Positions 2,565 to 44,002 of a stretch of 52,270 bases of DNA are shown here, piece by piece; position 1 is the first letter of the stretch, and every line of letters starts with the position of its first letter. The translations under genes and the position numbers were made by a program. Location of the stretch: positions 1 through 52,270 of IMG/VR virus record IMGVR_UViG_3300044616_000326, one strand, 5' to 3'. Below the pieces are notes generated by a model. It had not been told where the DNA came from, did not search any database, and saw only the letters and a program-made list of their open reading frames with translations. Source of the DNA: a virus (lineage: Duplodnaviria > Caudoviricetes).

Positions 2565-5500
2565 TGAGAAAGTTAAAACTAGGTAAGTCTAAGATTGCTG
2601 GTAAAGGTTTATTTACTACAGCAGAATTTGCTCAGGGTGAAATGATTGGGTTGGCACATGAAAATGACCAACCCACTACTTTTATTGGTAAGTACCATAA
2701 TCACTCTGATGAACCAAATGCTGAAAGTGTAAAGCTAGGAGATAAAAGATATCTGATGGCTAAAAGACCACTTAAGAAGGGAGAAGAGATTACAACTAAT
2801 TATAGACTTCAACCAGAACTTGAGCAACCTGAAGATTTTGCAAAAGGAGGACTTGTAAAGATGCCAAAGCCTAGTAAGAAGGGTCTAGCATCTAAAAAGT
2901 TTTCTAAGAGCTTAGATGCAACAAATAAGTTATTTACGGAAAACTATTTATTTGAGAAACCTAAATCTAGAAAAAGAAAAGTATTTGATCCAAATGCAAA
3001 GTATTATCAGAATGGTGGAATAACAACACCTGAAGATTATGATCAGTTTAAAACATTTGCAGAAACTCTTCCTTCTAATTTACAAGATCCAAATTTTGAA
3101 TATGGTAACCCAGATCAATATGATTTATATGGGATGTGGGAAACTGTAGGTAAGCCAGCTTCATTTGCTAATGTTCAAGATTCTGAGTATTTCCCATTAG
3201 ATGAAGATGGAACATATCACGGATTTACAGTTGGTAGTGATGGTACACTTTTAAAACCAATGAGTCATAGCACTACTTGGAAAGAAGTAATGAACTCTCA
3301 ATTAAGTACTGACCCATTCTTTCAGCAAAATACTCTTATTAGAAATGAACAAGGCAGATTGCAATATATTCCAAAAGCTGAATATGGTATGCCTATGGGT
3401 GCTGGTATGTCTCAAAACTATCAAGGTAGAAAAAGATTTATTCATCAAGATGGTGGTATAATTTCACAAGAAGAAATGGATGCTGCTAACAATGCTATGA
3501 TGAAAGCAAGATTAGCATATGCAAATATGCATGGTAATCCTGCGGCTCAAAGAATGGTTGTTGCACCAGACCAACCATATGATTTTGGTGACGGTGTCAC
3601 AGGTACTCATTATATGGCATCTATGGATAACTATGCTGTACCTCAGATACAAGATATTAATGGTCAACTCATGTTAGGAGATTATGGTCCTGACTCTGCA
3701 GAAGCTATAAGATTTGATAATCCTGAAGATGCAATGTACTTTGCAGAACATTACAAAGAAATTACTCCTGATGCATCTTATAGACAAGAAGAGTATGCAG
3801 TAGGTGGTGTAGCATTTCCTATGGATCTTGATCCAAAGACAATGAAAAAATATAAAGAAGCTCTTAAGCTTCAAGAAAATTCAATTAAGTCTGGATATAA
3901 GAAATCAGAAGATAAATGGTATCCACATAAAAGTCCTGAAGGTGGAGCTGATACTATTGGATATGGTCATAAACTTTTAGGAGCAGATGCTAGTAAATAT
4001 TATAAAGGAATAAGTTCAGCAGATGCTGATAAATTACTTGAGTCAGATATATTAAAACATCAATCTATTGCTGAAAAAATAGTAGACCAGAAATATGGTA
4101 AAGGTACTTTTGACGGTTTACCACAAGATTCTCAAATGCTCCTTGTAGACTATGCTTATAATGGTGTATTAAACAAGTTTCCAACATTTATGGGGGCTGT
4201 TGTTCAAGGTGATAAAAATACTATGCTTAAAGAATATGAAAGATCTGGAGCTGGTGGTTTATTAAAAGAAAGAAATGCATGGACAAAAGATACTATTCTT
4301 GAAGGAGATTTTAATACTCCATCTAGTTTACCTGGAAAAGGTCCTCAACAAGTATCATTAAATAGCAATAAAGATAAATGGGGTAGAAGTCCAAATACAA
4401 TATGGTATGGATTTAATCCTGATACAAAACAATATGAACAAGAAGGCTTAGATTGGGAACAGTATGGTGATCCTGGACCAGGTATTGAAGGACCCGGAGC
4501 AGGTGCTTATGTAACTCCTGGTGAAAGATTAGAAACATATCGAAAAAATAATCTTAAAAAACAACAAGAGGGTGGAGATATTATTTCTCAACAAGGATGG
4601 GATTATATAAAAGAAGGTGACAAATACTTAACAAGAAAAACTGGTACTCAAGATTGGATAGAAGCCCAAGGCAGACCACTACAAGCTATTAAACAAAGCA
4701 TATATCAAGAGGCGCCAGTTGTAACACCAGTTGTATCTGAATCTACTACACCAACAACTCAACCTGTAATAGGAGATCCAAAAGTTTTAGAAATACAGAA
4801 AAAACTAAAAGATGCTGGATATGATCTTGGAAAATATGGTCCTAATAAAGATGGTATTGATGGTATAATGGGTAATACAACTAAGTTGGCTTATGATGCT
4901 TACAAAGCAAATATCCCACCTAATGAAGTTAAAGTACCTAAGAAAACTACTAAACCTACAATTAACTATACAGTTAATAGAGATCTTCCAGATGGATATC
5001 TTCCCGTAATACAGCCAGGTCAAGAAGCATGTGTAGAAGGTAAGGGTTGCTCATTTAATGTTAATGTTAAAATGGGTGACTTATTAGGAAATATTGCTGA
5101 TGGACCATTATGGGCAAATGATGCTTGGTTTAATAAATCTGATATACTAAATAAGGGCGGTGATTTAATTTATGATAGTAATTCTAAAATCTATAATGAA
5201 ATGGGTAAGGTTCCAAAAGAAGTTTACTCAAAACTGCAAGTCGGAGATTATGTACAATTAAATAGAACAGATACTGCATCAAGTGGTAAGTTTGCTGCTC
5301 AAACAAAAGAAGGACTTCAGAATGAACAGATTGAACACTTAGGCTTTGTTGTAGGTAAAGACAAAGATGGTACTCCATTAATTTGGCATGGTTCAGAAAC
5401 TGGTAAAGCATTTATTAAAAGAATAGATGAGCCAATTACTTTAGATGATCATGATAAAAATATCTTTACATACAAGGTATCTTCAATTGTAAGATCTCCT

Positions 5501-40252: not shown

Positions 40253-42157
40253 TTAAAATAAAGTTAGTTGGTTTGTACTTGGTTCAAGGTTCTCAATTTC
40301 CTTTCTTACTTTCTCTAGGTAATACTTGAGATTAATATCATACTCCTCAAACTCTTTCTTTTCATAATCAATCATAAGGGTCTGCATCCATTTACCGGCT
40401 TCTACTTGTATAGCCCGCATGTCCTCATTATTTTTCTTAACAATCTTACCACCACTATTAGATATATAATATCTGATAGTATGTTGTAAAGGGACATCTT
40501 GATACTCACCCTGGTGTACCTTGTGGAAGTGAAAAGACCAGTCTCCTTTAATCTTAACACCACCACAGTAATCAAATATATCTGTGTTAGCTTTCATAAA
40601 GTCTTCCGGGTCTATCCCATCTACAAAATATGCATGTAAAGCTTTAGGAATAATCAAAAAGCTTTTGTTCTTATGCATGGCCAAATCCTTGTACTCAAAT
40701 CTACCCTTGCATTTAGACTTGCCATCTTCAGTAACAGCAATGTAATTATTTACATCACCCAGAACAATCTTACTATAAGTATCATGCTCTAACTGTAGAT
40801 TAGTCATCTCTTCCCATCTCTTACAAATTTCCATATACTTATCTATATGTTTTCTTGGGATCATTGTCTCAAGACCATCTGTATTCTGCATTAGTGGAAT
40901 TGCACCGGGAATCTCTTCACAAATCATCTCATACAGCATTGACAAACTTAGCTGACCATTAATAGTAATCCTCATTGTAAATTCAGGATCATATAGGAAG
41001 CTGTTCTCATCATTACTTAACCCATAGGTTGAGTTTAGGATAATCTTATATACATAATTCTTAGGATCAGATTTAGGAATCTTCTTCCTCTCTTCAAAAA
41101 ACCATTCATACAGACTGCAGAATTCATCTTGTGGTAAATGTGCCGGAGCCCATTTGTTTCTGATAGCCAAATTAGGATAGAAACTAGTAACGTCAGACGT
41201 CATTATTACCATGTCCTCATCAGACTTATAAACTTTACTTCTTCTAGCACCATGAATACCACCAAGACCATAATCAGTCTTTACACCTTTGTACTGTACA
41301 GAGTATTTAAAACCTCCTTTAGTCTGACCCGGGAAGATTACTACTTCCTTAAACTTTTTAAGAAGATTCTGGAATGTAGCTGTCTTAAATTCAATATATG
41401 GTAGAATGATTTCATCTACCTTAATCATACTTCTATGGGTTCTCATTTGTCTAAGATCCCATCTTTTAATACCAGTCTGTTCACTCAGGAACATCAGGAA
41501 TAACTCCTTAGAAATTCTTGGCTCGGAAGCACTGAAGAGATTGATACCATATTCTTCTGTTAGTTGTCTACGTAACTCAATCTGACTCTTGCTGAGCTGC
41601 ATGATCTGTTTAGTAGACTTAACATCATTAATACAATATCTGATAACTTCTGGAATCTGTTCTGCAGTGATTTTACTAGTATGATGAATAGGCATGTCCA
41701 TTATGTTATGCCAATCCATAGTATACTGAATCCACTTTAAAGAACTTCTCTTGGCATTATTATCCCAGTGATTTAATTTAAAGACATCTATCTGGTTAAT
41801 CTGAAGATCTCTTGGAGAGAATTCTAGAAACTCCCCGCGGTTTTGTCTTCCAATAATATCCTGAGCTTTGCCATAAAGCCATTTAGCAATTGATTCTCCT
41901 GTGTTATGAATAACAGTGTCTCTATTTCTGAGAATATACTCAGTAATCTGACTGTCAAATCCAAGACCATTAAAAGATACATGCCATTCTTCTCTTGCAA
42001 TATTACCCTGCAAGAATTCTACAAGCTCTAAGATATCATTCTGTGATTCATGTACTACAAAGATTTCTCTTTGTTCAGACTTAATGTCCTCAAAACAGGC
42101 AATGAAACAATTGGATAAGGTTTCGAAATCCATCACCCAGTGAGTTCTTTCATTCAT
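40253..42157 (-). CDS. polB: Family B DNA polymerase with 3'-5' exonuclease
   Basis: Exo I DFETL, Exo II FNGLGFD, Exo III YCINDV. Pol motif A DVTSFYPN, motif B KIILNSTYG, motif C NTDG. C-terminal QLTLF. Confidence 0.9.
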   Translation of the reverse strand: MNERTHWVMDFETLSNCFIACFEDIKSEQREIFVVHESQNDILELVEFLQGNIAREEWHVSFNGLGFDSQITEYILRNRDTVIHNTGESIAKWLYGKAQDIIGRQNRGEFLEFSPRDLQINQIDVFKLNHWDNNAKRSSLKWIQYTMDWHNIMDMPIHHTSKITAEQIPEVIRYCINDVKSTKQIMQLSKSQIELRRQLTEEYGINLFSASEPRISKELFLMFLSEQTGIKRWDLRQMRTHRSMIKVDEIILPYIEFKTATFQNLLKKFKEVVIFPGQTKGGFKYSVQYKGVKTDYGLGGIHGARRSKVYKSDEDMVIMTSDVTSFYPNLAIRNKWAPAHLPQDEFCSLYEWFFEERKKIPKSDPKNYVYKIILNSTYGLSNDENSFLYDPEFTMRITINGQLSLSMLYEMICEEIPGAIPLMQNTDGLETMIPRKHIDKYMEICKRWEEMTNLQLEHDTYSKIVLGDVNNYIAVTEDGKSKCKGRFEYKDLAMHKNKSFLIIPKALHAYFVDGIDPEDFMKANTDIFDYCGGVKIKGDWSFHFHKVHQGEYQDVPLQHTIRYYISNSGGKIVKKNNEDMRAIQVEAGKWMQTLMIDYEKKEFEEYDINLKYYLEKVRKEIENLEPSTNQLTLF

Positions 42158-42351
42158 ATTTTTTGATTAAAGGATTCATTAAACTCTTTTATAGATTTAC
42201 CTAATCTTCCCATACTGTATGCTTCTTTAAGTCTTTCATTCTCAATTTCTTTGGCTTGTTTAATAGCACTAATTAAGCCTATCTCATAGAATCCAAGATT
42301 GATTTGTTCTTCTAACCATTCTACGGCAGATTGTTGTTTTTCTGTGCTCAT
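42154..42351 (-). CDS. Small hypothetical protein (KQxAVEWL family of Bacteroidota phages)
   Basis: 65 aa, KQQSAVEWL..IKQAKEIE. ATGA overlaps with the genes on both sides. Confidence 0.6.
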   Translation of the reverse strand: MSTEKQQSAVEWLEEQINLGFYEIGLISAIKQAKEIENERLKEAYSMGRLGKSIKEFNESFNQKI

Positions 42352-42893
42352 TTTCCTTCTTTTAAATAATTAATTGCTTTTTCTAAAAGTTCAATAGAAT
42401 CTTTTAGTTTTCCAATGCCACCATTACAGGCATCACATAATAAACCTCTTGCTTCACCTGTTTCATGATTATGATCTACACACAGTTGTCTTTTAAACTT
42501 ATCTTGATGACCACCACAAATAGCACAACAACTATTTTGATACTCTAGCATTTGAAGATATCTCTCATAAGTCATATCTTTTATACCAGCACTTTTCCAA
42601 CCAGAAACTTTACTTACAATAGGATTATAATTAGACCTAGCTTTTGCTCTAACTTCTTCAGGATTATTAATTCTATCCTGTCTTTTTTTTGCATTAATAA
42701 GATCTTTATTCTTATGATACTTTTTAGAAGCAATAGTTTTAGCTTTTTCTTTATTATTCTGGTACCATCTTCTTTGTATTTCTTTATTACAAGTATTACA
42801 AGTTCTGTGAATACCATCTGGTCTAGAAGCATCTTTTCTATATTCGGATAAAGGCTGTTCTATTTTGCAAGTTGTACATTTTTTTGTTTCCAT
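42348..42893 (-). CDS. Endonuclease VII-type HNH homing endonuclease with N-terminal Zn finger
   Basis: CTTC..CNTC Zn finger and CAICG..LCVDHNHETG..RGLLCDACNGGIG Endo VII motif. The likely start is ATG at 42893 (METKK). Confidence 0.85.
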   Translation of the reverse strand: METKKCTTCKIEQPLSEYRKDASRPDGIHRTCNTCNKEIQRRWYQNNKEKAKTIASKKYHKNKDLINAKKRQDRINNPEEVRAKARSNYNPIVSKVSGWKSAGIKDMTYERYLQMLEYQNSCCAICGGHQDKFKRQLCVDHNHETGEARGLLCDACNGGIGKLKDSIELLEKAINYLKEGK

Positions 42894-42897
42894 ACTA

Positions 42898-42929
42898 TAA
42901 ATATACAAAATGGATTAGAAATATGCAAA
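42898..42929 (-). promoter_or_regulatory. Putative promoter TTTG-N20-TATATTTA for the endonuclease
   Basis: The minus strand reads TTTG-catatttctaatccattttg-TATATTTA-tagt-ATG. Confidence 0.6.
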
Positions 42930-42934
42930 TTTAT

Positions 42935-42976
42935 TTAACTTAAAGTTTCATAGTCCATTACCCAATGTGTTCTCAT
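42935..42976 (-). pseudogene. Orphaned 5' end of polB (mini-ORF MRTHWVMDYETLS*)
   Basis: ATG AGA ACA CAT TGG GTA ATG GAC TAT GAA ACT TTA AGT TAA. 11 of 12 residues are identical to PolB residues 4-15. Confidence 0.8.
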
Positions 42977-43014
42977 ATTATTTGTTCAGTTAAGCTGTCC
43001 CCCCGTTACTGCAT

Positions 43015-43047
43015 AAAAAAAGGTAAACTGTAGATTTACCCTTTTTT
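43015..43047. terminator. Intrinsic terminator hairpin
   Basis: A-run, GGTAAA-ctgtaga-TTTACC, then C and a T-run. Confidence 0.7.
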
Positions 43048-43072
43048 ACTGTTACACCTTTAAAACAATTTG

Positions 43073-43414
43073 CTATGAATTAACAAAGCTAAGATAATTA
43101 AAATCTTTATTAACTACAACTAAATTAATTAAATCTTTGATAGATTCTACATCACTAATGTAATATTCTTGAAATACTTCAAGTTTGTGACGTTCTTGTT
43201 TCATTCCTTTTGTCCCTGTGATAGGTTGTCCATACTCATCAAGCTTAGGTAACATCTGTAAAGTATTTCTTTTCTGTTTAGAAATAACTACAAAGACTTT
43301 GCTTTCTGGATCAAAGATACATTCTACATAAGGGGAAGCCTCCGACACTGGGATGGCTCTAAAACTTGGCTTACCACTCCACTCAGAGCTAATAAGCATC
43401 ATACTATTTTCCAT
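43073..43414 (-). CDS. Hypothetical protein
   Basis: 113-aa ORF in the operon, with an A-rich leader. Confidence 0.7.
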   Translation of the reverse strand: MENSMMLISSEWSGKPSFRAIPVSEASPYVECIFDPESKVFVVISKQKRNTLQMLPKLDEYGQPITGTKGMKQERHKLEVFQEYYISDVESIKDLINLVVVNKDFNYLSFVNS

Positions 43415-43435
43415 ATTGGTTTATTTTTTTACAAA

Positions 43436-44002
43436 TTAATCTAGAATTTTTATGTTTTCCAAATTTGCAACTGCAATTAGTAAACATTCTTTATCAAGAT
43501 CTGGTTTATCACATAATTCTCCTACTTCTTCTATTAGTTTTTTATCAACTCCTAGAATCTCTGCATATCTCTCAAACCAATTTTCTGGATTTAAGTAACT
43601 ATTAATATAAACATAGTTACCACTGTACTGCTCAAAGAAATTAAGTATAGTTTCTTTAGTTTGTTTAGATAGTTTACTATATCTACCATTAATTAAATGA
43701 TTCCAATCTTCTTTTAAATCAGAAAAGTCAAATATAAATACACTTTGCTCTTTATTAATAACCACATAATCATGTAATCTAGTATGTTTTAATAAAACAC
43801 TAGACTCAAACTTTTTATATTCTGAATCAGTTCTAGTTTCATACAAACATATTAGTTTCATATCCTCAGAAGTATATGTATCATTCCATCCAAGATAAGT
43901 CTCAGATGGAACAACACTTGTACCTCTTTTAATTCCCAAGAGCGGATATAAAAATATCTTGGACTTTTGAAAGTATTTCCTATAAAGCGTATTTATTACC
44001 AT
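43436..44002 (-). CDS. Hypothetical protein
   Basis: 188-aa ORF, tightly packed downstream of the nuclease gene. Confidence 0.7.
   Translation of the reverse strand: MVINTLYRKYFQKSKIFLYPLLGIKRGTSVVPSETYLGWNDTYTSEDMKLICLYETRTDSEYKKFESSVLLKHTRLHDYVVINKEQSVFIFDFSDLKEDWNHLINGRYSKLSKQTKETILNFFEQYSGNYVYINSYLNPENWFERYAEILGVDKKLIEEVGELCDKPDLDKECLLIAVANLENIKILD

Follow-up and report, generated by a model that had tools for sequence, protein, structure and literature searches.

A probable Endo VII-motif homing cassette that carries a replacement start for the phage DNA polymerase gene it occupies

The window, a metagenome-derived viral contig of 52,270 bases (IMG/VR record IMGVR_UViG_3300044616_000326, rated 44% complete), holds a DNA polymerase gene whose first codons are present twice. 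One copy opens the intact gene. The other is a mini open reading frame (mini-ORF) of 13 codons that lies upstream on the same strand, and a free-standing endonuclease gene with an Endo VII motif, followed by a gene for 65 amino acids (aa), separates the two. Here, we describe this locus and its relatives, and we argue that it is probably a homing cassette, seated at the codons of exonuclease motif I, that carries a replacement for the gene start it displaces.

Layout of the polymerase locus

The features of the locus, all on the minus strand, are as follows (nt, nucleotides; L002 is an uninterrupted relative described below).

43414-43073, minus strand: gene for 113 aa, conserved left neighbour of the polymerase operon
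42997-42985, minus strand: core CAGCTTAACTGAA of the native polymerase leader, within ACGGGGGGACAGCTTAACTGAAC; it now leads into the relic
42976-42935, minus strand: relic mini-ORF MRTHWVMDYETLS plus TAA, the recipient's own polymerase start (13 codons)
42937-42894, minus strand: left end of the cassette, made of the relic's TAA and a 41-nt non-coding spacer (44 nt in total)
42893-42348, minus strand: free-standing Endo VII-motif endonuclease gene, 181 aa, starting METKKC
42351-42154, minus strand: 65-aa cargo gene, of a small phage protein family
42157-40253, minus strand: DNA polymerase gene, 634 aa, starting MNERTHWVMDFETLSNCF, complete and intact
42157-42089, minus strand: imported, re-spelled polymerase start (codons 1-23 by comparison with L002, codons 1-18 by comparison with the uninterrupted allele from lake water)

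The original prediction, made from the letters of this DNA, had listed the mini-ORF, the Endo VII gene, the 65-aa gene and polB in this order, and each element is found where it was claimed. The mini-ORF reads ATG AGA ACA CAT TGG GTA ATG GAC TAT GAA ACT TTA AGT TAA and stops after the codon corresponding to S15 of the polymerase, the TAA being supplied by the cassette. It shares 12 codons with the polymerase (42973-42938 against 42148-42113). Exactly as had been listed, seven of these codons differ and a single residue changes (Y to F); the copies differ at 10 of 36 bases, and the longest run identical between them is 5 bases. Both gene junctions behind the spacer are ATGA overlaps (42351-42348 between the nuclease and the 65-aa gene, 42157-42154 between the 65-aa gene and the polymerase), which link the genes and fit the proposal that the new start is translationally coupled to the cassette. 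The promoter motif proposed upstream of the nuclease is a candidate at most. One sigma-70-like match lies there (42929-42900), but the scan for promoters and terminators performed no better than chance, with 6 sigma-70-like matches in the region for 5.9 expected. The spacer (42937-42894) may hold a promoter.

The polymerase matches PHROG 1252 'DNA polymerase' (E 9e-147) and aligns with the solved family B polymerase 1s5j over the NSTYG and TDG motifs (E 1.3e-4); its matches to the Pfam family B models stay below the cut-offs. Neither the polymerase nor the nuclease nor the 65-aa protein has a match in NCBIfam. Judged from its sequence, the polymerase is family-B-like with an N-terminal DEDD exonuclease pattern. 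The repeated peptide contains D10 and E12, invariant in 15 aligned polymerases, in which N63/F67/D68 and Y174/D178 are conserved as well. By their order and the DEDD pattern, we take these three groups to be exonuclease motifs I-III. For motif I, the assignment depends on the conserved pattern, the polymerase's structure model being too poor: its mean predicted local distance difference test score (pLDDT) is 50, below 40 at the N-terminus, and the model was not used. A profile of the 15 polymerases, searched against solved structures, reached the palm motifs only and not the N-terminus.

Empty alleles and the imported polymerase start

A scan of viral contigs with the polymerase gave 80 loci (L001-L080; 75-98% protein identity). 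In 76 of them the 113-aa gene, which has no Pfam and no PHROG match, lies directly upstream of the polymerase region; in the other four the contig ends first, so that the upstream part is missing. The polymerase follows within 130 bases of the 113-aa gene in 57 loci, and two more have the same direct arrangement with slightly longer gaps. One or two small non-nuclease genes stand between leader and polymerase in 15 loci, and only two loci (L028 and L034) have an Endo VII gene before the polymerase. The uninterrupted allele that the original prediction had called for was thus found in abundance. Leaving out L028, L034 and one locus cut inside the gene by the contig end, 77 of the 80 loci have an uninterrupted polymerase start and no nuclease. 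In the closest relatives this start reads ATG AGA ACA CAT TGG GTA ATG GAC TAT GAA ACT CTT AGT AAT TGT..., that is, as the mini-ORF continued. The mini-ORF is therefore the old polymerase start, cut after codon 13. Together with the 110 bases upstream of it, the relic matches the polymerase start of L002 at 141 of 149 positions, so the repeat is not due to chance. On its own, the relic matches at 37 of 39 bases, and both differences fall in the Leu codon, last but one before the junction.

The 13-base core CAGCTTAACTGAA of the leader has one exact copy in the window; in related loci it stands ahead of the polymerase ATG or, where small genes open the operon, ahead of the first of them. More broadly, a conserved leader, ACGGGG(R)ACAGCTTAACTGAA, stands at 42985-43005 of the window (minus strand) and at the same position in L001-L080, about 10-15 bases before the first ATG of the operon, across polymerases that are only 75% identical. 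Possible roles for this leader are those of promoter, RNA element and protein-binding site.

Both alleles were also met in lake water. In eighteen lake-water runs, at least half of the words sampled from 41600-43400 are present (in six RNA runs the share is 5-8%), and four of the eighteen were compared with the window as assembled contigs. In run X2, a 948-base contig spans 42026-42973 with zero differences and an overlapping contig covers 42944-43070; hence, the architecture is confirmed in an independent assembly. In runs X2 and X16, two of the four, a contig joins 42944 to 42103 with AAATGCGTTGCTAAG between them (plus strand). These 15 letters restore the reading frame, which on the minus strand gives ...E T / L S N A F / I A C..., the uninterrupted start. 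Occupied and empty alleles therefore occur in the same waters; since the contigs are assembled and the shorter side of the joint measures 30 bases, they speak for presence only. Run X18 has further joints (41782 to 42982 is one), which are set aside here, their sides being short and their inserts unread. Lake runs X10 and X18 also contain, next to the window's own version of the nuclease gene, a variant that differs from it by about 10% (window 42549-42885; 33 and 27 differences over about 290-340 bases).

A DNA search of the phage GenBank collection with 41500-43500 returned one record and no related locus, the match being the Endo VII gene of a Pelagibacter phage (70.8% identity over 6% of the query). 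A protein search of phage GenBank with the polymerase gave 959 records, all below 60% identity and too distant for allele comparison.

Comparison of near-isogenic loci delimits what was brought in. From codon 4 onwards, the polymerase genes of the window and L002 differ at 18 of the first 60 bases and then at 0 of 166 (Fisher test comparing the two stretches, 1e-9); among the 20 codons of this divergent tract, two change the residue. Between the cassette-bearing L028 and the empty L036, 17 of the first 45 bases differ, followed by 4 of 1851 (Fisher test, 4.5e-26). On the two sides of an insertion of about 1.1 kb these loci are 95.5% and 99.0% identical, and the relic and leader of L028 are identical to the start of L036. 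In three independent near-isogenic pairs, only a few codons separate the end of the exchanged tract from the repeat; on the right the tract extends 3-8 codons beyond the repeat (to codon 18-23). Because of this extension, the right-hand junction is best described as a homologous crossover. Of the original idea that a recoded start was inserted, the replacement start stands, and the clean insertion point gives way to this crossover. The tract past the repeat and the Leu-codon differences on the left fit co-conversion of the flanks, as judged from the alignments, and other kinds of recombination are compatible with them too.

The new start of the window is closer to the cassette-linked starts of L028, L034 and L138 than to L002. 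We compared eight cassette-linked starts with 54 distinct nuclease-free alleles. ACT at codon 5 occurs in 5 of the 8 and in none of the 54; TTY at codon 11 in 7/8 against 4/54; ACC at codon 13 in 6/8 against 8/54; and TCN at codon 15 in 7/8 against 17/54. The combination of TTY at codon 11 and TCN at codon 15 is found in 6/8 cassette-linked starts and 2/54 nuclease-free ones. Descriptively, then, the cassette-linked starts appear to form a spelling class of their own, the pattern expected if the new start travels with the nuclease; the contrast is descriptive only because the linked starts may share descent.

Several features of the relatives concern the same position. In 14 of the 80 loci (L004, L005, L011, L026, L031-L033, L037, L038, L040, L041 and L053-L055, at about 4640-5000 in each), two Cys-rich protein families of 75-90 aa occupy the leader and start position of the polymerase, and the polymerase start overlaps their stop codon. 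Such genes are also present at L034 4246-4476 and L081 2688-2915. Family one begins MG and has the pattern ...C..C...TYF.FPI.C.CC.P.H; family two begins MV(K/T)YK. One member of each was tested and had no PHROG match. L058 has an unrelated 64-aa gene at this position. In addition, some nuclease-free polymerases carry N-terminal extensions (MSNVN-, MKTIN-, MSST-; L080 at about 4270-4330, L066 at 4986-5030, and L040, L041 and L053 at 4989-5030), and the start of L080 is spelled like the cassette-linked start of L028 (AGA ACC CAT TGG GTC ATG GAT TT.). These extended lineages may have lost a cassette, or may be a source of the carried start.

Recurrence, cargo and mobility of the nuclease gene

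Nuclease searches of viral and metagenome contigs, together with pattern scans, yielded 11 records, the window included, with an Endo VII gene before this polymerase. All 11 have a relic, and their polymerases come from lineages only 60-79% identical to that of the window. Two types of cassette can be told apart. Type A comprises the window, L081, L082 and L138, with nucleases 77-89% identical to that of the window; its relic ends ...TTA AGT (after codon 13), followed by TAAATA.ATTTGCAT.TTTCTAATC. This breakpoint is the same in L081 and L138 and slightly diverged in L082, and the left end at 42937-42894 is conserved with these three records. Type B comprises L028, L085, L034, L132, L083 and L139, whose nucleases are 37-42% identical to that of the window; its relic ends ...GAC TAT (after codon 9), so that the break parts the D codon of motif I from the E codon, and TTGTGATTATAAAAAT comes next. 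L140 is mixed, its nuclease being B-like and its breakpoint A-like. Scanning for the type A left end brought up no contigs beyond the two known before; the scan for the type B junction gave 13 contigs, of which five were real cassettes and eight were chance matches in AT-rich DNA.

The relics follow the local lineage. They stand after the leader where relatives go from leader to polymerase, and after a small Cys-rich gene in L081, L034 and L139, as in those lineages. Some have decayed: in L083, I and N replace M and the catalytic D, and the relic of L082 has lost its stop, its frame staying open until shortly before the nuclease ATG.

A cargo slot separates the nuclease from the new start. In the window it holds the 65-aa gene and in L081 a 78-aa gene that is unrelated; L083 and L139 have a gene for a Cys-rich protein of about 69 aa, and L028 (4421-4993) has a 190-aa gene resembling RNase H/DEDD exonucleases (PHROG 2259, E 8.6e-55); in L034 and L140 it is empty. 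The cargo of L138 is a distant relative of the 65-aa protein, linked through a third protein, from L111; direct comparison of the 65-aa protein with the L138 and L081 cargo found nothing. The 65-aa gene, originally listed as an element of the cassette, is thus exchangeable cargo and no part of its core. In L028, a second exonuclease thus travels with a type B cassette that cuts into the exonuclease motif of the polymerase.

The 65-aa protein belongs to a family with the hallmarks TAVEWL...AKEME.... Relatives occur in 12 other viral contigs (36-62% identity over most of the length), and five further loci match residues 39-64 only (65-83% identity); none of these relatives adjoins a polymerase. 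In unrelated phage contigs some form sets of two or three tandem paralogues (L107 2995-3666; L109 2760-3174), all with TAVEWL near the start and AKEME mid-protein.

Divergence along the loci indicates that the nuclease gene is mobile relative to its flanks, as the original prediction had it. In nine of nine same-type pairs, synonymous difference is 0.07-0.48 in the nuclease gene as compared to 0.44-0.79 in the two upstream genes (188 aa and 113 aa) and the polymerase; in the extreme pair, L083-L139, it is 0.069 in the nuclease and 0.77 in the polymerase. Similarly, the relic-plus-nuclease segment of the window is 87.9% identical to that of L081, where the flanks reach 70-73%. On nearly the same backbone (0.04-0.10), L138 and L140 carry different cassette types (0.58), their flanks aligning at 94% and 95.7% around an unalignable middle. 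All eight full-length nuclease genes are intact, with a ratio of nonsynonymous to synonymous differences of 0.13-0.37, that is, under purifying selection. Five relatives are rated 99-100% complete: three have no Endo VII-family gene and two have one elsewhere. Given its absence from near-complete relatives, the nuclease gene counts as accessory, not as a resolvase with a housekeeping role. No Endo VII match came from five further related contigs, rated 35-61% complete, which says little as they are fragments. The near-complete L200 (1441-1860, minus strand) and L201 carry different Endo VII-family genes, of 139 and 143 aa, and that of L200 sits among genes for small, very basic proteins.

The nuclease itself matches Pfam PF02945 Endonuclease_7 (E 2e-22; 79.3 bits for a cut-off of 23.6; residues 111-183 of the 186-aa ORF with a TTG start) and PHROG 2633 endonuclease VII (E 1.3e-31). 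The DHHRN motif is defined in passages of PMC6083498 as CX2-4C, a central DH(D)H, a conserved R, CX2C and a distal N. All of its residues are present: C123-A-I-C126, D140 H141 N142 H143, R149, C153-D-A-C156 and N157; the position equal to N142 is called non-essential in the same passages. This catalytic motif is C-terminal (residues 123-157 of 181), as in the endonuclease clade and unlike the resolvase clade, where it is N-terminal according to the part of PMC6083498 that treats the two clades. Among solved structures, the restriction enzyme Hpy99I comes closest by sequence (E 9e-10), followed by T4 Endo VII (E 0.006), and a fold search with the structure model (mean pLDDT 81.8) gave the same two at the top, in the same order. 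The model shows N-terminal strands with two CxxC pairs, helices over residues 33-118 and a beta-beta-alpha-metal unit at 138-178, which fits a predicted DNA-binding part joined to a nuclease part.

The claim that the element has neither intron nor intein was borne out. Rfam gave no match, to a group I intron or any other RNA family, at E up to 1 within 41900-43200; only 44 non-coding bases separate relic and polymerase start, and the polymerase has a complete start of its own. The Pfam search found no intein domain, and the nuclease and 65-aa gene are separate ORFs that overlap by ATGA. Since the relic ends in TAA, an in-frame intein is excluded.

Interpretation and relation to known elements

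We consider that the locus is most probably a free-standing Endo VII-motif homing cassette at the motif I codons of the polymerase gene, which carries a replacement gene start. The cassette would span 42937-42089 and be built round the endonuclease gene. From the comparison of alleles, we infer that the nuclease cuts at the motif I codons, that the re-spelled start resists it and that break repair is the route of transfer. In a mixed infection, the nuclease would cut cassette-free polymerase alleles at or near these codons (about codons 9-18), and repair of the break would use the genome that bears the cassette as its source. On the left, the leader and first 13 codons of the recipient would stay as a dead relic, closed by the stop codon of the cassette. 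The nuclease gene, any cargo gene behind it and the donor copy of the polymerase start would be copied in, with the right-hand crossover a few codons past the repeat, and the polymerase would then be translated from the new ATG that overlaps the stop of the preceding gene. With its different spelling, the new start would escape recognition by the nuclease, its recognition site being spoiled, and the 36-base repeat would be kept from recombining with the relic and deleting the cassette. Beyond the window, it is about an even call whether a whole family of phage cassettes invades the motif I codons, with two types that compete and a slot that serves as a cargo bay for unrelated small genes.

Several points weigh against this interpretation. 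The whole case is comparative. The relics of L138 and L140 differ although the gene upstream is nearly identical, so that a relic can also travel with its cassette. The spelling counts are not independent, and shared descent inflates the contrast, although the homing model itself predicts shared descent. Some nuclease-free alleles already have TCC at codon 15 (17/54) or F at codon 11 (4/54), and therefore such changes alone cannot define resistance. The linked start of L081 keeps TAT at codon 11 and has H instead of M9. The new starts of types A and B resemble each other, as do the sequences directly ahead of the nuclease ATG, so that both types may go back to a single founding insertion and not represent two target sites. 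Type A is represented by only four records, one of which is truncated at a contig end, and a direct donor of the window's whole cassette was not found in the searches. Among the window, L081 and L138, cargo and new start are less conserved than the nuclease gene.

Plain, untargeted recombination with a diverged relative would make the nuclease a passive passenger and the relic an inherited scar of one old illegitimate event. The mosaic flanks (93% to 98.5% identical to L002, depending on the part of the locus), the small non-nuclease genes admitted before the polymerase in 15 of 80 loci and the features common to types A and B all agree with it, and the original prediction had already offered recombination with a relative's locus as its alternative. 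As a description of how the DNA moved it is compatible with homing. As a full account we find it unlikely, because it leaves unexplained why one nuclease family recurs at one site in 11 records with polymerases 60-79% identical. Nor does it account for a nuclease gene much younger than its flanks in every same-type pair, for exchanged tracts that end near the repeat in three near-isogenic pairs, or for relics that are lineage-specific at constant breakpoints.

Somewhat less probable still is that the mini-ORF is kept for a function, such as that of an upstream frame that sets the translation of nuclease and polymerase, or its timing, a possibility compatible with homing. It keeps the native leader and ATG, the cassette supplies an immediate stop (TAA in type A, TGA in type B) and a relic is retained in every record. 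However, relic length varies between 13 codons (type A) and 9 (type B), the residues are altered in L083 and the stop is lost in L082, and in the window the stop lies 41 bases before the nuclease ATG. The presence of the relic needs no function, because homing at this site leaves a relic each time.

A housekeeping role for the Endo VII gene, as Holliday-junction resolvase or T4-like packaging debranching enzyme next to an incidental repeat, is very improbable. Pfam does group the nuclease with the T4 recombination endonuclease VII, and the gene is under purifying selection. A T4-type resolvase was nonetheless rejected as a candidate: the nuclease is absent at the site in 77 of 80 loci and three of the five near-complete genomes have no family member, the motif lies C-terminally behind a separate N-terminal region, where the portion of PMC6083498 on resolvases has it N-terminal, and the nearest solved relative is the sequence-specific Hpy99I. 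Finally, a chimeric contig of two strains can be dismissed as the origin of the repeat, even for a metagenome contig rated 44% complete, given the difference-free X2 contig over 42026-42973, the overlapping contig over 42944-43070 and ten further records from other data sets with the same architecture.

For the homing cassette proposed here, the closest known match in logic appears to be the mobile endonuclease ORFs (mORFs) of fungal mitochondria, which carry a replacement gene end (Allomyces macrogynus atp6; Glomus atp6, atp9, cox2 and nad3; sections of PMC3630166). As these sections describe them, both have an endonuclease gene inside a protein-coding gene that is neither intron nor intein, a diverged copy of the displaced gene end that restores the frame, and a native end that stays as a relic and is closer to relatives than the inserted copy; horizontal transfer was inferred for mORFs there. 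In contrast, mORFs replace the 3' end and use a LAGLIDADG or GIY-YIG nuclease, often fused in frame (same sections of PMC3630166), whereas the window has the 5' end of a phage polymerase gene, an Endo VII-type nuclease in a separate ORF, a coupled new start and a cargo slot. By analogy, the two would share a way of working and not a lineage, since nuclease family, gene end and host differ.

Other known elements share parts of this organization. The F-CphI/DHHRN family has the same C-terminal CxxC, DH.H, R, CxxC, N motif and is free-standing in phage (motif comparison with excerpts of PMC6083498). According to these excerpts, F-CphI lies beside the psbA intron site and family members also reside within group I introns in other phages' DNA polymerase genes; the window differs in that it has no intron and a carried duplicate restores the gene. 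The seg and mob genes of T4-like phages are likewise free-standing nuclease genes near or in essential replication genes, and passages of PMC2988022 describe coding-region insertions of mobE in Aeh1 nrdA, mobA in T4 gene 60 and seg43 in phage 25 gene 43. Their use of upstream promoters, co-conversion of flanking markers and variable presence among close relatives, as set out there, can be likened to the window. In these insertions the gene is split, with products that reassemble, or is read by ribosomal bypass, whereas here the polymerase is in one piece, since the little that is displaced is made good by the cassette; nowhere does that review use the word stem 'duplicat'. Endo VII-like endonucleases nested in actinophage inteins, and also free-standing, are described in part of bioRxiv 10.1101/2025.01.02.630785; they too are an Endo VII-family mobility gene that targets DNA polymerase and other essential genes, but as presented there the elements sit in inteins and need protein splicing, and the window has no intein. 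In a limited search of open-access full texts, as far as these were accessible, no phage case of a carried replacement gene start turned up.

Homing endonuclease genes usually spare the host gene by residing in introns or inteins or between genes, or else they leave it in pieces. If the homing interpretation is correct, the locus illustrates a further route in phage, in which the short stretch of gene that is cut off has its substitute on board the cassette. The highly conserved start of an essential gene would thereby be open to invasion, and a catalytic-site sequence, which cannot drift, would offer the element a stable target. The pairs of occupied and empty alleles (the window and L002, L028 and L036, and the lake-water contigs) are natural material for comparison, and a new sequence-specific Endo VII-type nuclease would be defined. 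Such cassettes would tie a polymerase allele and its passenger genes to a selfish nuclease, which bears on where mosaic boundaries fall in phage genomes.

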